From NCBI RefSeq assembly GCF_053078305.1, contig NZ_CP166879.1: a stretch of DNA of 64,000 bases; one strand, written 5' to 3'. Of the stretch, positions 18,296 to 33,608 are shown piece by piece. The translations under genes and the position numbers were made by a program. The notes beneath the pieces were generated by a model. It was given only the letters and a program-made list of their open reading frames with translations. It was not told where the DNA came from and ran no database searches. Every line of letters starts with the position of its first letter. Within the stretch, counting starts at the first letter, position 1.

Positions 18296-19393
18296 ATGAA
18301 AGGACGTTGGGTAAAGTACCTTCTTATGGGCACGGTTGTGGCAATGCTTGCCGCCTGCTCTTCCAAACCAACCGATCGCGGACAGCAATATAAAGACGGG
18401 AAATTTACCCAGCCTTTCTCTCTGGTGAACCAGCCAGATGCCGTTGGCGCGCCGATTAACGCCGGTGATTTTGCCGAGCAAATTAACCATATCCGTAATT
18501 CGTCACCGCGTCTGTATGGCAACCAGAGTAATGTTTATAACGCGGTGCAAGAGTGGCTGCGCGCAGGCGGTGATACCCGCAATATGCGCCAGTTCGGCAT
18601 TGATGCCTGGCAGATGGAAGGTGCCGACAACTATGGAAACGTGCAGTTTACAGGCTATTACACGCCGGTAATTCAGGCGCGCCATACCCGCCAGGGCGAG
18701 TTCCAGTATCCTATTTACCGTATGCCGCCAAAACGTGGTCGTCTGCCGTCTCGTGCGGAGATCTACGCGGGGGCATTGAGTGATAAATATATTCTCGCTT
18801 ACAGTAACTCCCTGATGGATAACTTCATTATGGATGTGCAGGGTAGTGGGTATATCGACTTTGGTGATGGCAGTCCGCTTAACTTTTTCAGCTATGCAGG
18901 GAAAAACGGTCATGCCTATCGCAGCATTGGTAAGGTGCTGATCGACCGTGGCGAAGTGAAAAAAGAAGATATGTCGATGCAGGCGATTCGTCACTGGGGC
19001 GAAACACACAGTGAAGCCGAGGTTCGCGAGCTGCTGGAACAGAACCCGTCTTTCGTCTTCTTTAAACCGCAATCTTTTGCACCGGTGAAAGGGGCAAGTG
19101 CGGTGCCGCTGGTTGGCCGTGCTTCTGTTGCCTCTGATCGTTCCATTATTCCGCCAGGTACAACCTTGCTGGCAGAAGTGCCGCTGCTGGATAATAACGG
19201 CAAATTTAATGGTCAGTACGAATTGCGTCTGATGGTGGCGCTGGATGTCGGTGGCGCAATCAAAGGCCAACACTTCGATATCTATCAAGGGATCGGGCCG
19301 GAAGCCGGGCACCGCGCAGGTTGGTACAACCACTATGGACGTGTCTGGGTGCTGAAAACCGCCCCGGGCGCAGGTAACGTCTTTAGCGGCTGA
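18296..19393 (+). CDS. mltA: Membrane-bound lytic murein transglycosylase A (lipoprotein)
   Basis: 365 aa from MKGRWVKYLLMGTVVAMLAACSS (lipobox); the upstream part of ORF 18014..19393 overlaps a tRNA gene and is rejected. Confidence 0.9.
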   Translation: MKGRWVKYLLMGTVVAMLAACSSKPTDRGQQYKDGKFTQPFSLVNQPDAVGAPINAGDFAEQINHIRNSSPRLYGNQSNVYNAVQEWLRAGGDTRNMRQFGIDAWQMEGADNYGNVQFTGYYTPVIQARHTRQGEFQYPIYRMPPKRGRLPSRAEIYAGALSDKYILAYSNSLMDNFIMDVQGSGYIDFGDGSPLNFFSYAGKNGHAYRSIGKVLIDRGEVKKEDMSMQAIRHWGETHSEAEVRELLEQNPSFVFFKPQSFAPVKGASAVPLVGRASVASDRSIIPPGTTLLAEVPLLDNNGKFNGQYELRLMVALDVGGAIKGQHFDIYQGIGPEAGHRAGWYNHYGRVWVLKTAPGAGNVFSG

Positions 19394-25373: not shown

Positions 25374-26105
25374 TCAGGCTGTTACCAAAGAAGTTGCAAC
25401 CTGGCGCTCATCAGAAATAATGTGCGTTACCTCATCCAGATGCCCGATGCGGGCTTCCCCTGAACGATTAAATTTACTTTTATCAATCAATAACAACGAT
25501 TGCGCGGCACGTTTTAATAGCATCGATTTGTAATCAGCGTTGATGGCATTGGAGTCCCACAGTGCGCCGCTGCTATCGATCCCTTCACAAGAAAAAATAA
25601 ACAGATCGATTTCCAGCGATTTAAGTTGGGAAATCAGCGAGGGATTGACGTAACAGCCATATTTGCGCTCAAGTGTGCCGCCGGAACTGATCAGTTGAAT
25701 GCGTTCGCGTTTACCGAGTTCATGGCAAATCGGATGGCTATTGGTGAAGACCTGAATGTTGATGTCAGGCAACTGGCGTGCCAGATACCAGCAAGTTGAA
25801 CTGGCGTCTAAGGCTATCACCATCCCTTCTTCAATCCACGCGAGCGCCTCGCGCGCGATATCTGCTTTATGCGCATAATGGCTTTTCAGCCTGATGTGAA
25901 AGGGATCGCCACTGTCTTGATTTTGACGGTGGATATATTTAGCGCGTCCATGATTGCGCAGAATTTTACCCTGCGTCTGTAATTCATTGAGATCGCGACG
26001 AATGGTTTCTTTACTGACCTTTAGCTGTTCAGAGAGAGCTTCCGTGGTCAGGCTGGTATGGTTCAGCAGCAGGTCGACTATCGCTTGCTGGCGTGCCGCT
26101 TTCAT
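25374..26105 (-). CDS. fucR: L-fucose operon activator (DeoR family)
   Basis: 243 aa from MKAARQQAIVDLLLNHTSLTTEALSEQL. Confidence 0.9.
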   Translation of the reverse strand: MKAARQQAIVDLLLNHTSLTTEALSEQLKVSKETIRRDLNELQTQGKILRNHGRAKYIHRQNQDSGDPFHIRLKSHYAHKADIAREALAWIEEGMVIALDASSTCWYLARQLPDINIQVFTNSHPICHELGKRERIQLISSGGTLERKYGCYVNPSLISQLKSLEIDLFIFSCEGIDSSGALWDSNAINADYKSMLLKRAAQSLLLIDKSKFNRSGEARIGHLDEVTHIISDERQVATSLVTA

Positions 26106-26162
26106 ATTTTTCACCCCATCATTCGATAACCGCCCGCGTCATGCGGGCGTACCGGTATGAGA

Positions 26163-26585
26163 TTACGGTGTTACCCCTTTTTTTAAAAGAATATTCCCGT
26201 ACTTCGCTCGTTCGCCTGTGATAACGATCGCAAAGGCTTTTTGCGCCCGTTCATAAAACGCAAAACGATTGATGCGGATGATGTCAGGACAGGGGGCTTG
26301 TAGTGAAAGCGCATTACGGTAACGTCGTTCTACTTCAGGATCGAGAGTGTCACCTTCTACCGCTGCCATCATCACCAGCGGCGGTGCATAACTGTCCAGC
26401 TCAAATAACGGGATAATCGCCTGGAGCAAGTCGCTCACCAACAGGCCATCAGCGCGGATCACCTGCGGTCCCATCGAATGGGCGGGAAAGTGAGCATCGG
26501 AAAAAATAATTTCATCTCCATGTCCCATCTCTGCCAGCACTTTCAATAGTTCGGGAGAAATTAACGGCGAAATTGTTTTCAGCAT
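26163..26585 (-). CDS. fucU: L-fucose mutarotase
   Basis: 140-aa ORF, RbsD/FucU family, in the fuc operon. Confidence 0.9.
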
Positions 26586-26586
26586 T

Positions 26587-28005
26587 TCACACTTCCTCTA
26601 TAAATTCAGGTTCAGTTTGCGGGTAGAAATAACGGTACTGATAATGAATCTGCGCGCGGGCTTCTTCCGGGCTGTTAAATTCCCCTACGCCATACCAACC
26701 GAACAGCGCAGCTCCTGCGACGGTCGTTTCGGCGTCGTCGAGAACTTTTACCGGAATATCAAGCATATTGGCTTTAATCTGATTCCACAATGTGTTGCGA
26801 CTTCCTCCTCCGACTAACAATAATTCAGAGGCTTTAAAGTGCCCGATTTTTTCCAGCATCTGTAGATTGCGCTGTAATTGCGCAGTTAACCCTTCCAGCG
26901 CCGCGCGATAGAAATGCCCCCGCGTGGTATTAAGCGTCACTCCTTGCCAGCCAGCGTTCTGACACGACAATAAATCACACTGCATTTTCACGCCATCCGC
27001 GCCAGGCGCGATCAGACGAGCCTCTTCAATCAACATTTGCCAGGGTGTTTCAGCCGTCCAGAACAGTTTTCTCACCCATTCCAGCACGCCGGATGCCAGC
27101 CATTGCATACCTGGGTTATACAACCCTGCCTGGCTATCCAGTTCGCAGGTGGAACCGGCGTACTGACTTAACAGCGAAGTATCAACCTGGGCGCTGCGAA
27201 CCATTAAAATTTCCCATGTACCGGAAGAGAGCACGGGTTCATTTTGTTCAGCACCAGCGCCAAAAAGGGCGAACTGGGTATCGTGACCTGCGGAAATCAC
27301 CGGTATGCCAACGGGTAAGCCGAGCATTGCTGCGGCGCTGTTCTGTAGCGTACCAATCTGTTCACCCGCTTCCACCAGACGAGGGAAGAGTCGGCGTGGA
27401 ATACCGGTGGCTTGTAAAATTTGCGGACTGAAATCGCGTTGCTGGATATCCAGCATCTGGCTGGTTCCGGCCATCGTGATATCAGTAGTGAATTCGCCGG
27501 TTAAACGGTGGTTAATCAGCGACGAAATAAAGAGCCAGGCGTGCGCGCGTTCCAGCAGTTGTGGATGATTTTCTTTCAACCACACCAACTTATATAACGT
27601 ATTGAAACTAAAGGCTCCGACGCCAGAAATAGCCTGCAACCGCTGTGCGGAGATTAACCGTTCAATATTGTCCATAACCGCTGCTGTTCGCGGACATTTC
27701 CAGCTAATGATCGGATAGAGCAGATTGCCTTGCTTATCTACCAGAGCGCCATCCACACCAAAGGTGGTGACGGCGATACCGCGGATGTGGCATTCAGTCA
27801 GTTCACTATTGATTTGCCGACAGCAATCAGCAAAGCGTTGCAAAATGGCGTCTAAAGACCACTGGTGCCAGGTGTTGTTTTCCATCGCGATATCGCTGGC
27901 ATTAGGCGTTGAGGCGCGGGCAACAATTTTTCCCTGCCGATTAACCGCGATGGCCCTGACATTGGTCGCGCCACAGTCGAGTACCAGGATAACTTCTTGT
28001 TTCAT
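26587..28005 (-). CDS. fucK: L-fuculokinase
   Basis: FGGY-kinase sequence; 472 aa from [21 protein letters not shown] (a start 10 codons upstream is also possible). Confidence 0.9.
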
Positions 28006-28023
28006 GATCGCTCCTGCAATATA

Positions 28024-28047
28024 GCCGGATAACATTGCTTATCCGGC
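28024..28047. repeat. REP-like palindrome in the fucI-fucK spacer
   Basis: GCCGGATAACATTGCTTATCCGGC, a perfect hairpin-forming palindrome. Confidence 0.6.
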
Positions 28048-28113: not shown

Positions 28114-29889
28114 TTAACGCTTGTACAACGGACCGTAGTTCTGGCAAGCGCGGTAATCCTGGCCTTCAATATCCATGCCGTGCGCAGCCCAGGCAGAAGG
28201 ACGATACACTTTGGTCTCTTCAACGTTGTGCATACATACCGGGATACGCAGCATGGAGGCGAGAGTGATAAAGTCTGCGCCAACGTGGCCGATGGTCAGA
28301 ACCCCATGGTTAGCGCCCCAGTTCGCCATTACCGAGTACACATCCGTAAACGGCCCTTTACCGGTGAGGCGCGGTGCAAACCAGGTGGTTGGCCAGGTTG
28401 AGTTGGTGCGTTTGTTGAGGATGTCATGCACATCCTTCGGCAATTCCACGCTCCAGCCTTCCGCGATTTGCAGTACCGGTCCCAGGCCTTTGATGATGTT
28501 GACACGAGTCATGGTGAACGGGACGCCGCCTTCGGTAAGGAAGCGGGAAGAGTAACCGCCGCCACGGAAGTATTCGTGGATCGCCGGGCACCATTCGGTA
28601 GCGGCGAGGCAAGCGTCAGCCTCTTGCTGAGAGATTTCCCAGTGCGGCTTCATCGTCGGGTTACCTTCGCTGTCGCGTTGTTTACAGGAACCGTCCAGCG
28701 CAGCAGAACCGGAGTTGATCAAATGGATGATGCCGTGTTCTGCCAGTCCATCCAGTTTATGCCCCGTTACACGCTCAATTGCTTTTGGTGACCAGTAGGT
28801 ACGCACATCGGCAAATACCTGAGCGGTGCCGGTGAGCTGGTGACCCATTAGCATTGCCACGCCGTTAAGACTGTCGTTTTCGGTCGCCACGACAAAGGGT
28901 TCGCGCACGCCATTCCAGTCAAATGAACTGTTGAGGATCGCTTCGGCGGTGTCACCATTGGGATATTGATCGGTCCAGTGGCGTTGTCCCTGGAAGCCCG
29001 CAGCGATGGCGTTGTAGCCAAGTGATTCTTCCACGCGACCAATATCGGCCAGTTTGCTGTTGCCTTGCATCATGTCGCGGATACACATCGCCATCAGTAA
29101 ACTTTCGCGCAGAACTGCGCGGCTTTGCTCGGCATTGCGTTGATACTGTTTGTTATTTTCATCTTCGCCATAGCGGAAGTTTTTATCAGCCCAGGTCAGT
29201 GCCATTTCCAGTTCGGCTTCGTCGTAAATCTTCTGATCGATACGGCGACGCAGTTCGGTCATATCCACCGCCTGGACTTTCATTCCCAGCCAGGATTCAA
29301 AGAAGTTGTGATCAACAATAGAACCGGCGATACCCATCGAAACGCCGCCCAGCGACAGATAGCTTTTACCTTTCATGCTGGCGACGGCCAAACCGGCGCG
29401 GGCAAAGCGCAGCAGTTTTTCTTCAACATCGGCAGGAATCGATGTGTCATCGGCATCCTGAACGTCATGACCGTAAATGGAGAATGCCGGGATGCCTTTC
29501 TGGCTGTGAGCTGCCAGAGCCGCTGCCAGGTAAACAGCGCCGGGACGTTCAGTGCCGTTAAAGCCCCAAATGGCTTTCGGGCGGGTTGGATCCATGTCGA
29601 TGGTTTCACTGCCATAGCACCAGCAAGGCGTTACCGTAATGGTGAGGCCTACATTCTGACTGCTGAATTTTTCTTCGCAAGCAGCGGCTTCAGCCATACC
29701 CGCGATACAGGTATCGGAAATGACACACTCGACGGCAGCTCCGCAGGCATGGCGCAGTTTCTCGGTCAGCAGTGCGGCCGTAGCTTTCGCCATATTCATT
29801 GTTTGTTCTTCAAGCGACTCACGAACACCCATGCGACGACCGTCAATAACCGGGCGGATACCAATTTTCGGTAAGCTGATTTTTTTCAT
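28114..29889 (-). CDS. fucI: L-fucose isomerase
   Basis: 591-aa ORF starting [36 protein letters not shown]. Confidence 0.95.
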
Positions 29890-29921
29890 TACAGATTCCT
29901 CACTTTATTCGGAAAATATGT

Positions 29922-31238
29922 TCAGTTAGTTGCCGTTTGAGAACGGAAACGGGCAAAGATAAAGATGACCGCGAAGCAGAGTGCGGGGATCAGTTCAGCA
30001 GTGGGGATGTTGCCCGCCGCGTCACTGACAAAACCCATGACCGGAGTGACAATACCGCCGCCAATGATGGTCATAACGATGAAGGACGAACCGTATTTGG
30101 TGTCCTGGCCGAGATTCTTAATGCCCAGCGAGAAGATTGTTGGGTACTGAATCGACATAAAGGCGCTGCATAAAGTCAGGGCTATTAAGCCCACATGACC
30201 GCCAGCGAAGGCTGAGATCAGGCACAGTGCCATAGCGATTAATGCGTAGGCGGCCAGGACTTTGTGTGGTGCGAAGCGACTGATGAGCCAGGTACCGGTG
30301 AAACGACCAATAAAGAAGCACACCATGGTTCCGGTTAAATAGTTAGCGGCAAAGCCTGCAGTCATACCTGGAATTTCTTCTACAGCGTAGCGAATCAAAT
30401 AGCTCCAGCAGGCCGTTTGTGCGCCAACGTAGCAGAATTGCGCTAATACTGCCCAGCGCCAGTGGCGAATACGCGCCAGGCGAGAAAGCGATGCGGAGAA
30501 CGATCCTTGTTTGGCGTCACTGTGATTATCACTCTGCAATGCCGGGAATTTCGTCAGCATGATCAGCAGGGCGACCAGTAACACGATAGCCACGATGATC
30601 ATATAAGGTGTCTGTACCGATAATACCAGGCTGTGTTTATACGCACTCAATTGCTCTGGAGACATTTTATCGAGAACGTCTTGCGATTGATGTGGCACGT
30701 TAGACAAAATAAGACTTTGCCCAAAGACAACCGCGATAATTGCGCCAAATGAGTTAAATGTTTGCGCAAGATTTAAGCGGAAGTGACCACTGCTTTCCGG
30801 CCCTAATACCGTAACAAAAGGGTTTGCGGCAGTTTCCAGACAACCTAATCCGGCTGCAATAATAAATAGGCCAACTAAAAATAAGGTGTAGTTCATTATT
30901 TCTGCCGCGGGCCAGAATAATGCAGCACCCAAGGCATATAAAAATAACCCGGTAATAATTCCTGCTTTATAACTGAGTTTTTTCATCAATATCCCAGCAG
31001 GAATTGGGATAATGAAATAACCAAAGTAAAAGGCCGATTGGATCAGGCCAGCCTGGAAATTTGTCAGCGTAAAAGCCTGCTGGAATTGAGGTAATAAAAT
31101 GTCGTTAAGGTTATTGGCTACCGCCCAAAGAAAAAACAGTGAGCACAGCAGCGCGAATGGAATAATGTAACTTCTGCTTTGCCCTGCATCTTTATCTACC
31201 GCACGGTAACTCTGCGTTTGTATTGATGTGTTTCCCAT
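29922..31238 (-). CDS. fucP: L-fucose:H+ symporter (MFS)
   Basis: 438-aa polytopic membrane ORF at the head of fucPIKUR. Confidence 0.95.
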   Translation of the reverse strand: MGNTSIQTQSYRAVDKDAGQSRSYIIPFALLCSLFFLWAVANNLNDILLPQFQQAFTLTNFQAGLIQSAFYFGYFIIPIPAGILMKKLSYKAGIITGLFLYALGAALFWPAAEIMNYTLFLVGLFIIAAGLGCLETAANPFVTVLGPESSGHFRLNLAQTFNSFGAIIAVVFGQSLILSNVPHQSQDVLDKMSPEQLSAYKHSLVLSVQTPYMIIVAIVLLVALLIMLTKFPALQSDNHSDAKQGSFSASLSRLARIRHWRWAVLAQFCYVGAQTACWSYLIRYAVEEIPGMTAGFAANYLTGTMVCFFIGRFTGTWLISRFAPHKVLAAYALIAMALCLISAFAGGHVGLIALTLCSAFMSIQYPTIFSLGIKNLGQDTKYGSSFIVMTIIGGGIVTPVMGFVSDAAGNIPTAELIPALCFAVIFIFARFRSQTATN

Positions 31239-31500
31239 AGCATCCTCTTAGGTTCAGAAGCTTAAGCACGTAATCGGTTATGTTTTCAAAAGTGCAAAAC
31301 CAGCGAGTTCGGGCTTCATATCAGTGAATATTTGCCTGTCTGAAATGAACTCATGGATTCATTTTCAAATAAAAAACGCTCTGTAATATGACGGCGGTCA
31401 CACTTATTAGCTGGAAGGTGACTTTATGTGACTACCATCACTTTAATAATCGAAATTTCATGCCCGTTTCAGAAAATAAATCATAAAAAACACAAATCAG

Positions 31501-31595
31501 ATGACCGTATTAATTGTTTGTGCCGAAAACGGTCATTCCGGGCTTGGAGGAATAGAAAAATGACCGTTTTGATAAATATTTTTAAGAGCGGTCAT
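31501..31595. promoter_or_regulatory. Paired inverted repeats in the divergent fucPIKUR / fucAO control region (candidate operator sites)
   Basis: ATGACCGT-20 nt-ACGGTCAT (31501..31536) and ATGACCG-22 nt-CGGTCAT (31560..31595) within the 546-bp intergenic region. Confidence 0.5.
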
Positions 31596-31784
31596 TTTTA
31601 ATGGGGTTATAAAAAGAGAACTTGCAGTTATTTACTGTGATTAGTTGAACCAGGTCACAAAATATAAGCTTGTGAATTTCTTTCTGGTTAATCAGGAAGA
31701 AGATGGTGGGTAATTAAACGGCTAATTCAATAGTGTGAAAGGAACAACATTATTGCCCTGTTTTGAATCAGAGAGAGGTAGCTA

Positions 31785-32432
31785 ATGGAACGAAATAAAC
31801 TTGCTCGTCAGATTATTGACACATGCCTGGAAATGACCCGCCTGGGACTGAACCAGGGGACCGCGGGGAACGTCAGTGTACGTTATCAGGATGGGATGCT
31901 GATTACGCCTACAGGTATTCCATATGAAAAACTGACGGAGTCGCATATTGTCTTTATTGATGGCAACGGTAAACATGAGGAAGGAAAGCTACCCTCAAGC
32001 GAATGGCGTTTCCATATGGCGGCCTATCAAAGCAGACCGGATGCCAACGCGGTTGTTCACAATCATGCCGTTCATTGCACAGCAGTTTCCATTCTTAACC
32101 GACCGATCCCCGCTATTCACTACATGATTGCGGCGGCTGGCGGTAATTCTATTCCTTGCGCGCCTTATGCGACCTTTGGAACACGCGAACTTTCTGAACA
32201 TGTTGCGCTGGCTCTCAAAAATCGTAAGGCAACTTTGTTACAACATCATGGGCTTATCGCTTGTGAGGTGAATCTGGAAAAAGCGTTATGGCTGGCGCAT
32301 GAAGTTGAAGTGCTGGCGCAACTTTACCTGACGACCCTGGCGATTACGGACCCGGTGCCAGTGCTGAGCGATGAAGAAATTGCCGTAGTGCTGGAGAAAT
32401 TCAAAACCTATGGGTTACGGATTGAAGAGTAA
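31785..32432 (+). CDS. fucA: L-fuculose-1-phosphate aldolase
   Basis: 215-aa ORF, class II aldolase. Confidence 0.95.
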   Translation: MERNKLARQIIDTCLEMTRLGLNQGTAGNVSVRYQDGMLITPTGIPYEKLTESHIVFIDGNGKHEEGKLPSSEWRFHMAAYQSRPDANAVVHNHAVHCTAVSILNRPIPAIHYMIAAAGGNSIPCAPYATFGTRELSEHVALALKNRKATLLQHHGLIACEVNLEKALWLAHEVEVLAQLYLTTLAITDPVPVLSDEEIAVVLEKFKTYGLRIEE

Positions 32433-32459
32433 TTTCGTAAAGCAACAAGGAGAAGGATG

Positions 32460-33608
32460 ATGGCTAACAGAATGATTCTGAACGAAACGGCATGGTTTGG
32501 TCGGGGCGCTGTTGGGGCTTTAACCGATGAGGTGAAACGCCGTGGTTATCAGAAGGCGCTGATCGTCACCGATAAAACGCTGGTGCAATGCGGCGTGGTG
32601 GCGAAAGTGACCCATAAGATGGATGCTGCAGGGCTGGCATGGGCGATTTACGACGGCGTAGTACCCAACCCAACAATTACTATCGTCAAAGAAGGGCTCG
32701 GTGTATTCCAGAATAGCGGCGCGGATTACCTGATCGCTATTGGTGGTGGTTCTCCACAGGATACTTGTAAAGCGATTGGCATTATCAGCAACAACCCGGA
32801 GTTTGCCGATGTGCGTAGCCTGGAAGGACTTTCCCCGACCAATAAACCCAGTGTACCGATTCTGGCAATCCCCACCACAGCAGGCACTGCGGCAGAAGTG
32901 ACCATTAACTACGTGATCACTGACGAAGAAAAACGGCGCAAGTTTGTTTGCGTTGATCCGCATGATATCCCGCAGGTGGCGTTTATTGACGCTGACATGA
33001 TGGATGGTATGCCTCCAGCGCTGAAAGCTGCGACGGGTGTCGATGCGCTCACTCATGCTATTGAGGGGTATATTACCCGTGGCGCGTGGGCGCTAACCGA
33101 TGCACTGCACATTAAAGCGATTGAAATCATTGCTGGGGCGCTGCGAGGATCGGTTGCTGGTGATAAGGATGCCGGAGAAGAAATGGCGCTCGGGCAGTAT
33201 GTTGCGGGTATGGGCTTCTCGAATGTTGGGTTAGGGTTGGTGCATGGTATGGCGCATCCACTGGGCGCGTTTTACAACACTCCACACGGTGTTGCGAACG
33301 CCATCCTGTTACCGCATGTCATGCGCTATAACGCTGACTTTACCGGTGAGAAGTACCGCGATATCGCGCGCGTTATGGGCGTGAAAGTGGAAGGTATGAG
33401 TCTGGAAGAGGCGCGTAATGCCGCTGTTGAAGCGGTGTTTGCTCTCAACCGTGATGTCGGTATTCCGCCACATTTGCGTGATGTTGGTGTACGCAAGGAA
33501 GACATTCCGGCACTGGCTCAGGCGGCACTGGATGATGTTTGTACCGGTGGCAACCCGCGTGAAGCAACGCTTGAGGATATTGTAGAGCTTTACCATACCG
33601 CCTGGTAA
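32460..33608 (+). CDS. fucO: Lactaldehyde reductase (L-1,2-propanediol oxidoreductase)
   Basis: 382 aa from MANRMILNETAWFGRGAVGAL; iron-containing alcohol dehydrogenase family. Confidence 0.95.
   Translation: MANRMILNETAWFGRGAVGALTDEVKRRGYQKALIVTDKTLVQCGVVAKVTHKMDAAGLAWAIYDGVVPNPTITIVKEGLGVFQNSGADYLIAIGGGSPQDTCKAIGIISNNPEFADVRSLEGLSPTNKPSVPILAIPTTAGTAAEVTINYVITDEEKRRKFVCVDPHDIPQVAFIDADMMDGMPPALKAATGVDALTHAIEGYITRGAWALTDALHIKAIEIIAGALRGSVAGDKDAGEEMALGQYVAGMGFSNVGLGLVHGMAHPLGAFYNTPHGVANAILLPHVMRYNADFTGEKYRDIARVMGVKVEGMSLEEARNAAVEAVFALNRDVGIPPHLRDVGVRKEDIPALAQAALDDVCTGGNPREATLEDIVELYHTAW

Follow-up and report, generated by a model that had tools for sequence, protein, structure and literature searches.

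The fuc regulon and its divergent control region

The stretch of DNA analysed here, from now on referred to as the window, comprises 64 kb of E. coli DNA and carries the fuc regulon; in a profile comparison, every fuc gene matched its NCBIfam equivalog. The minus-strand operon fucPIKUR starts with fucP (29922-31238; L-fucose:H+ symporter; NF007524, 977 bits) and continues with fucI (28114-29889), fucK (26587-28035), fucU (26163-26585) and fucR (25374-26114). The plus-strand operon fucAO starts with fucA (31785-32432; L-fuculose-phosphate aldolase; TIGR01086, 444 bits), followed by fucO (32457-33608). FucR is the DeoR-family L-fucose operon activator (NF007720 equivalog, 508 bits, residues 4-246 of the ORF). 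It also scores against the NCBIfam profiles of GlpR, AgaR, SrlR, UlaR and DeoR, and a PDB sequence search with FucR returned no relative at 1e-5.

The fucP start codon (ATG at 31238, minus strand) and the fucA start codon (ATG at 31785) are separated by a spacer of 546 bp, the length that the original prediction had given for this region. Only two of the 546 bases differ from K-12 MG1655 (positions 31413 and 31686), both located outside all boxes and repeats described below, and work carried out in K-12 therefore transfers directly to the window. The spacer is present in 5024 of 5426 E. coli genomes at a median of one place per genome. Together with the fact that the repeat-pair pattern occurs nowhere else in the window, this rules out a dispersed repeat of the REP/BIME or MITE type.

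Several promoter elements can be placed in the spacer. On the fucP side, two CRP sites are conserved: OCrp0 of the fucPIKUR promoter (31384-31405, taaTaTGAcggcggTCACActt; sequence from Zhou 2025, PMC11894529) and OCrp1 (31424-31445, TGTGActaccaTCACT core; named in Zhang 2024, PMC11011485, and Zhou 2025, PMC11894529). On the fucA side, OCrp2 (31642-31663, ttagtTGAaccaggTCACAaaa) is conserved and essential for the fucAO promoter PfucAO, its mutation lowering induced activity 350-fold, while OCrp3 (31731-31752, tagTGTGAaaggaacaACAtta), located in the fucA 5' UTR, plays a minor role (Zhang 2024, PMC11011485) and is weakly conserved (0.77 bits). The PfucAO transcription start, determined by 5'RACE, is a C at 31722 on the plus strand, 63 nt before the fucA ATG, with the -10 element AATTAA mapping to 31712-31717 (Zhang 2024, PMC11011485). 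The repeats and boxes that are the subject of this study span 31460-31595 and are flanked by the CRP sites of PfucPIKUR on one side and those of the divergent promoter PfucAO on the other.

Further features of the spacer should be noted. The -35 element of PfucAO has been placed as 'TTGtgA' at -96 to -91 (Zhang 2024, PMC11011485); the window sequence at -96 to -91 is TAATCA, and TTGTGA is found at 31670-31675 (-115 to -110), 36 bp from the -10 element AATTAA. Positions 31685-31690 read TTGTTA in K-12 and TGGTTA in the window. Consensus scans of the spacer for sigma-70 promoters and terminators yielded no match; for sigma-70 this fits activator-dependent promoters and is uninformative on the boxes. 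Two stretches on the fucP side, 31344-31375 (AATGAACTCATG..TTCATTTTCAAATAAAAA) and 31239-31263 beside the fucP start, are strongly conserved and presumably represent the core promoter of fucPIKUR and its 5' UTR or ribosome-binding region. In propanediol-positive K-12 mutants, IS5 always enters a CTAG target (Zhou 2025, PMC11894529). The corresponding positions 31411-31414 read CTGG in the window due to the substitution at 31413, TCAG in another E. coli and TCGG in E. albertii, so that the hot-spot tetranucleotide of K-12 cannot be regarded as universal.

Two inverted-repeat pairs with one geometry

Two inverted-repeat pairs are found in the spacer. Pair A consists of ATGACCGT (31501-31508) and ACGGTCAT (31529-31536) separated by 20 nt, and pair B of ATGACCG (31560-31566) and CGGTCAT (31589-31595) separated by 22 nt. 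Their starts are 59 bp apart, in line with the predicted two pairs at a distance of about 60 bp. When measured between the 7-mer cores, the gap is 22 nt in both pairs, which therefore share one geometry with arms 29 bp apart centre to centre. This distance corresponds to about 2.8 helical turns, not to the two turns across which binding had originally been proposed.

The pairs are not expected by chance. A search of the 64-kb window for ATGACCG-N15-30-CGGTCAT gave two matches, both in the fucP-fucA spacer, compared with none in 100 dinucleotide-preserving shuffles. ATGACCG and its complement were counted 15 times on both strands of the window compared with 8.2 +/- 2.4 expected, with four of the 15 copies falling inside the 95 bp of the two pairs. 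Five further copies in fucP and fucI coding DNA (29256-30201) were considered as additional sites and rejected as chance occurrences based on low scores once flanks are included and the lack of partners at 29 bp. Single high-scoring boxes of the type described below are also present at 18910, 26842 and 48602 (17.2, 15.7 and 14.8 bits); two lie within long ORFs and the third in fucK coordinates, none has a partner at 29 bp, and they are probably chance matches.

Five conserved boxes in the fucP-fucA spacer

To place the repeats in a comparative context, relatives of FucA were scanned using one genome per species, yielding 80 loci, 46 of which carry a divergent upstream fucP. Twenty-eight of these 46 regions, ranging from Escherichia to Kosakonia, were aligned, while counts of box layout are based on all 46 regions plus the window (47 regions). 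Besides the CRP sites, five boxes are conserved in the alignment. Their cores reach a mean information content of 1.6-1.85 bits compared with 0.99 bits in the rest of the spacer. All four arms of the two pairs, originally proposed as four half-sites, are real and conserved; a fifth conserved box at 31460-31466, outside the region then considered, had been missed.

Numbered from the fucP side, box 0 (31460-31466, plus strand) reads ATGCCCG, with the C at position 4 representing a tolerated M variant; most other genera have ATGACCG. It is the best-conserved box of the 28-species alignment (mean 1.85 bits), scores 12.7 bits with the position weight matrix derived from the alignment, matches the published DAP-seq consensus for FucR at 12 of 15 positions and is always located 41-42 bp before box 1. 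Box 1 (31501-31507, plus strand, ATGACCG) is the left arm of pair A, scores 15.3 bits, matches at 14 of 15 positions and is conserved in the alignment as ATGMCCGATTTAATT. The right arm of pair A, box 2 (31530-31536, minus strand; CGGTCAT on the plus strand), scores 19.4 bits and matches at 14 of 15 positions. Box 3 (31560-31566, plus strand, ATGACCG), the left arm of pair B, is conserved and fits the FucR motif better than any other site of the region, with 20.2 of a maximum of 20.7 bits and 15 of 15 positions. Box 4 (31589-31595, minus strand; CGGTCAT on the plus strand) is the right arm of pair B and matches at 12 of 15 positions.

Between boxes 0 and 1, an additional conserved block (31484-31495) can be followed from Escherichia as far as Yersinia and Hafnia. 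It reads TAAAAAACACAA in E. coli, TAAAACCCACAG in most genera and TCAAAC(A/C)CACA in Yersinia. The block matches the FucR consensus at only 7 of 15 positions and has just AAAAC..CA in common with a FucR box. Possibly, it is a degenerate partner of box 0.

The consensus of 133 box instances, written 5' to 3' on the CGG-carrying strand, is aAAACGGKCAttt. The C, G and G are kept in 132, 129 and 133 instances and the following C and A in 132 and 131, with K being T or G about equally often. Within Escherichia, cores vary solely by T>G at the tolerated K position and substitutions cluster between the boxes. Matrix matches of at least 12 bits occur at 7.5 per kb in the spacers and 0.09 per kb in flanking DNA; this contrast is partly circular because the matrix was trained on the 28 species, with only other taxa and the flanks being independent. 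As a negative control, FucA-homologue loci lacking a divergent fucP were inspected, and 29 of 34 show no upstream box cluster. Thus, the predicted conservation of the half-sites in orthologous fuc regions is borne out in the 46 regions and the window, and the five boxes and their spacing are under purifying selection.

Some loci outside the typical arrangement are of interest in their own right. Three Edwardsiella loci (L042, L048, L054) and Serratia sp. DD3 (L059) have no close fucP and yet carry FucR-type boxes upstream of fucA, including convergent pairs spaced by 22 nt, which suggests that FucR acts there amid a different set of neighbouring genes. Two assemblies, 'Martelella alba' (L030, an alphaproteobacterium) and 'Serratia marcescens 1001295B' (L014), contain Enterobacteriaceae-like fuc loci with the full box layout and a FucA 89-92% identical to that of E. 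coli; these assemblies may be mislabelled or contaminated.

The right arms coincide with characterized FucR operators

A FucR motif (…AAAACGGKCATT) was obtained by DAP-seq (Baumgart 2021, as quoted in Zhang 2024, PMC11011485). The quoted consensus is G/A C/T C/G A/C A/G A/T/C A/T CGG T/G CA T/A T/C/G, with CGG and CA given as its most conserved bases (PMC11011485). It agrees with the independently derived footprinting motif described above, both consisting of CGG-K-CA with an A-rich 5' flank. As quoted, the degenerate consensus is permissive, with 110 sites in the window matching at 13 or more of 15 positions and only two at 15 of 15, and was therefore dropped as a scanning tool.

Two FucR operators have been named in K-12, OFucR2 (CCGAAAACGGTCATT, window 31523-31537) and OFucR3 (TTAAGAGCGGTCATT, window 31582-31596) (Zhang 2024, PMC11011485). 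The right arms of pairs A and B are identical in sequence to these sites, with box 2 forming the core of OFucR2 and box 4 that of OFucR3. Mutation of OFucR2 reduces fucose-induced PfucAO activity by about 30% and mutation of OFucR3 by more than 50-fold, in both cases leaving basal activity unchanged (Zhang 2024, PMC11011485). Locus, right-arm 15-mers, regulator, inducer logic and the CGG-K-CA motif are the same in the K-12 system and in the window. The proposal that FucR uses the half-sites holds up well, given that the right arms are validated operators and all four arms are conserved and agree with 12-15 of the 15 positions of the DAP-seq consensus. In these published data, the evidence that FucR itself contacts the region is a DAP-seq peak (OFucR2) and not a footprint (Zhang 2024, PMC11011485).

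Published 5' truncations further define what is needed for PfucAO activity. Start positions are counted from the fucA ATG, and assays were carried out at the lac locus under full induction. With the 5' end at -270 (window 31515), the reporter contains boxes 2, 3 and 4, lacks boxes 0 and 1 and shows full induced activity; one starting at -206 (window 31579) and retaining only box 4 shows about 70%, and one starting at -166 (window 31619), without any box, has mostly lost it.

The existence of "four known" FucR operators or binding sites, named OR0-OR3, was later mentioned (Zhou 2025, PMC11894529), with no positions for OR0 and OR1 given in the text or supplements of that study. The left arms, boxes 1 and 3, may be OR0 and OR1, and, as those positions are unstated, one of the five boxes probably still lacks a name in the literature. 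A published mutation of box 0, 1 or 3 was not found in these two studies, and no further paper defining E. coli FucR sites was found among the literature searched. With a motif from 2021, two validated sites from 2024 and "four known" sites from 2025, the original remark that the sites had not been precisely defined is outdated. The regulator, the motif and the key sites are already published; what is new is descriptive detail of the layout. In both studies, each site is regarded as an individual 15-mer of one strand, and no mention is made of inverted pairing, the 22-nt spacer, a fifth box or conservation across species (Zhang 2024, PMC11011485; Zhou 2025, PMC11894529).

Spacing rules define two rigid modules

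The box order >><>< is shown by 31 of the 47 regions and, when a single additional weak match upstream is tolerated, by 35; among them are those of Hafnia, Buttiauxella and Yersinia, outside the training set of the matrix. Convergent neighbouring boxes are 29 bp apart in 77 cases and 30 bp apart in 10 cases, whereas divergent neighbours, i.e. those between pairs, are separated by 11 to 48 bp. The conserved unit can be written as a convergent (A/T)TGMCCG-N22-CGGKCA(T), in which the length of the spacer is fixed and most of its sequence is free. This 22-nt-spaced pair is kept from Escherichia to Yersinia and Photorhabdus. It is also retained where the rest of the layout differs, namely in Photorhabdus, Rahnella, Mangrovibacter, Edwardsiella and Serratia sp. 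DD3. In Photorhabdus, the unit is present twice at differing mutual distances (spacings 29, 11, 29 and 19), and in Serratia sp. DD3 a lone unit is located upstream of fucA. The sequence between the two boxes is not conserved in such rearranged contexts.

Intervals between elements were measured between reference columns of the 28-species alignment. Starting from the fucP side, OCrp1 and box 0 are 29 bp apart (28.5 bp centre to centre in the window; invariant in 28 of 28 species). The conserved block follows at +29 bp from the centre of box 0 in 27 of 28 species, with 30 bp in one, and lies 12 bp before the centre of box 1 without exception, while boxes 1 and 2 are invariably 29 bp apart. The interval between boxes 2 and 3 is variable, ranging from 23 to 30 bp. 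Beyond it, spacing is rigid again, with 29-30 bp between boxes 3 and 4, 59-60 bp between box 4 and OCrp2, and 62 bp between OCrp2 and the -10 region (27 of 28 species; 61 bp in one). This alternation of rigid and variable intervals defines two rigid modules, one for each promoter, joined by a flexible linker. Module 1 contains OCrp0, OCrp1, box 0, the conserved block, box 1 and box 2, and module 2 contains box 3, box 4, OCrp2 and the PfucAO -10 element, with the 23-30 bp from box 2 to box 3 forming the linker. As CRP sites are included in the modules as well, part of the rigid spacing may be due to constraints other than FucR pairing.

A probable FucR operator array and alternative explanations

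Most probably, the five-box array represents the operators of the DeoR-family activator FucR, an explanation that includes a pair-bridging oligomer and the module scheme outlined above. The identity of the boxes as FucR boxes is very likely, and the bridging of both arms of a pair by one FucR oligomer can be proposed with moderate strength. FucR acts as an activator in response to L-fuculose-1-phosphate, with box 4 (OFucR3) and CRP at OCrp2 being the elements essential for fucose induction of PfucAO according to the published mutants and box 2 (OFucR2) contributing about 30%. We hypothesize that a FucR dimer or tetramer with a span of about 100 Å contacts the two arms of a pair and that this contact would result in cooperative binding when FucR is scarce, fucR itself being part of the induced operon. 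Within each module, the distance between FucR and a CRP site may be fixed in such a way that FucR could help CRP to recruit RNA polymerase, as has been proposed for PfucAO (Zhang 2024, PMC11011485).

Whether both arms are required is where the evidence diverges. The 22-nt spacer is kept almost without exception, but reporters lacking left arms retain 70-100% of PfucAO activity. The original notion of paired half-sites with fixed spacing agrees with the conserved 22-nt spacing but finds no backing in the published functional data. Since the left arms are dispensable for most of the fucAO induction in the 5' truncations, the pair can only be suggested to be an obligate unit.

The same reporters would be explained if each 13-15-bp box were bound by FucR alone, with inverted orientation and the 29-bp distance resulting from CRP phasing or DNA bending. 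The reporter with only box 4 has about 70% of induced activity and the one without box 1 is fully active. Further, box 0 has no good partner, as the block at +29 matches at only 7 of 15 positions, and modelling of a fucose sensor yielded a Hill coefficient of 1 (PMC10046853). However, independently bound boxes would not easily account for a 22-nt spacer that survives rearrangement, as in the two Photorhabdus units and the lone Serratia sp. DD3 pair, while the distance from one pair to the next ranges from 11 to 48 bp. Also, the reporters were assayed at the lac locus under full induction, where cooperativity may not have been limiting. Taken together, we consider independent binding unlikely, though clearly the most serious competitor of a paired FucR array.

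Binding of the boxes by another factor, such as CRP, SrsR or a further protein, with FucR acting elsewhere, is very improbable. Four CRP sites and one SrsR site do occur in the spacer, but all four CRP sites lie outside the boxes, which on inspection do not contain the TGTGA-N6-TCACA dyad, and the SrsR box gCtGgTTTTGC is located at 31294-31304, far from them. Moreover, mutation of boxes 2 and 4 affects fucose-induced activity only and not basal activity (Zhang 2024, PMC11011485), and the motif, as quoted there, derives from DAP-seq with FucR itself (PMC11011485).

A role of the repeats as nucleic-acid structure, be it a DNA cruciform, an RNA hairpin or a terminator, can be dismissed for practical purposes: the arms can pair (ssDNA folding z-scores of -6.25 for pair B and -1.9 for pair A), but inverted repeats fold as hairpins by construction, the sole variable arm position is Watson-Crick paired in just 14 of 28 species (pair A) and 15 of 28 (pair B), as expected for independent variation, complementarity at the outermost (eighth) arm position of pair A is limited to 3 of 28 species, both promoters are located downstream of the region (transcription from PfucAO starts at 31722), loops are 20-22 nt long, and neither an Rfam match at a permissive threshold nor a terminator-like site was found. 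This absence of covariation between arms identifies the repeats as protein boxes instead of hairpins.

Comparison with related regulatory systems

The DeoR operators of E. coli are 16-bp palindromes (O1, O2 and OE) that engage in looping, and those of GlpR are 20 bp long and arranged in tandem. The FucR array resembles both systems in that the regulator belongs to the same protein family, has several operators in one control region, responds to a sugar phosphate and acts in interplay with CRP. In contrast to them, FucR is an activator, its boxes are located upstream of CRP sites and not over the promoter, and its half-sites are 29 bp apart instead of forming compact palindromes or contiguous tandem repeats.

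In the L-rhamnose regulon, the AraC-family proteins RhaS and RhaR bind two inverted 17-bp half-sites, 16-17 bp apart, together with CRP at divergent promoters. This arrangement shares with the FucR array a sugar-specific activator, widely spaced inverted half-sites, CRP dependence and a divergent control region for 6-deoxyhexose utilization. However, protein family and motif are unrelated, and RhaS/RhaR sites abut the -35 element, whereas the FucR boxes are located farther out than the CRP site, at least about 130 bp before the PfucAO start.

Implications for FucR regulation

As the main components of FucR regulation have been described, the present results change the field little, their residual value being descriptive: a map of five boxes with exact spacing rules. 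Two elements stand out as targets because no experiment on them was found, namely the strong box at 31560-31566 and the conserved block at 31484-31495. Across Enterobacterales, it is the convergent pair with 22-nt spacing that emerges as the conserved unit.

More tentatively, and with the balance leaning somewhat against it, FucR may recognize not a single 15-mer but a ruler-like unit formed by a convergent pair of boxes always separated by 22 nt, about 100 Å apart, with the region as a whole consisting of two rigid modules and a flexible linker. If so, box 3, box 0 and the CACA block would have roles, for example in switch-like cooperative induction at low FucR levels or, alternatively, in coupling the two divergent promoters, and the geometry would be unlike that of other described DeoR-family operators. 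The map could be of use for mutagenesis of the less studied fucPIKUR promoter, for the design of fucose biosensors and for structural work on how a DeoR-family activator contacts DNA.
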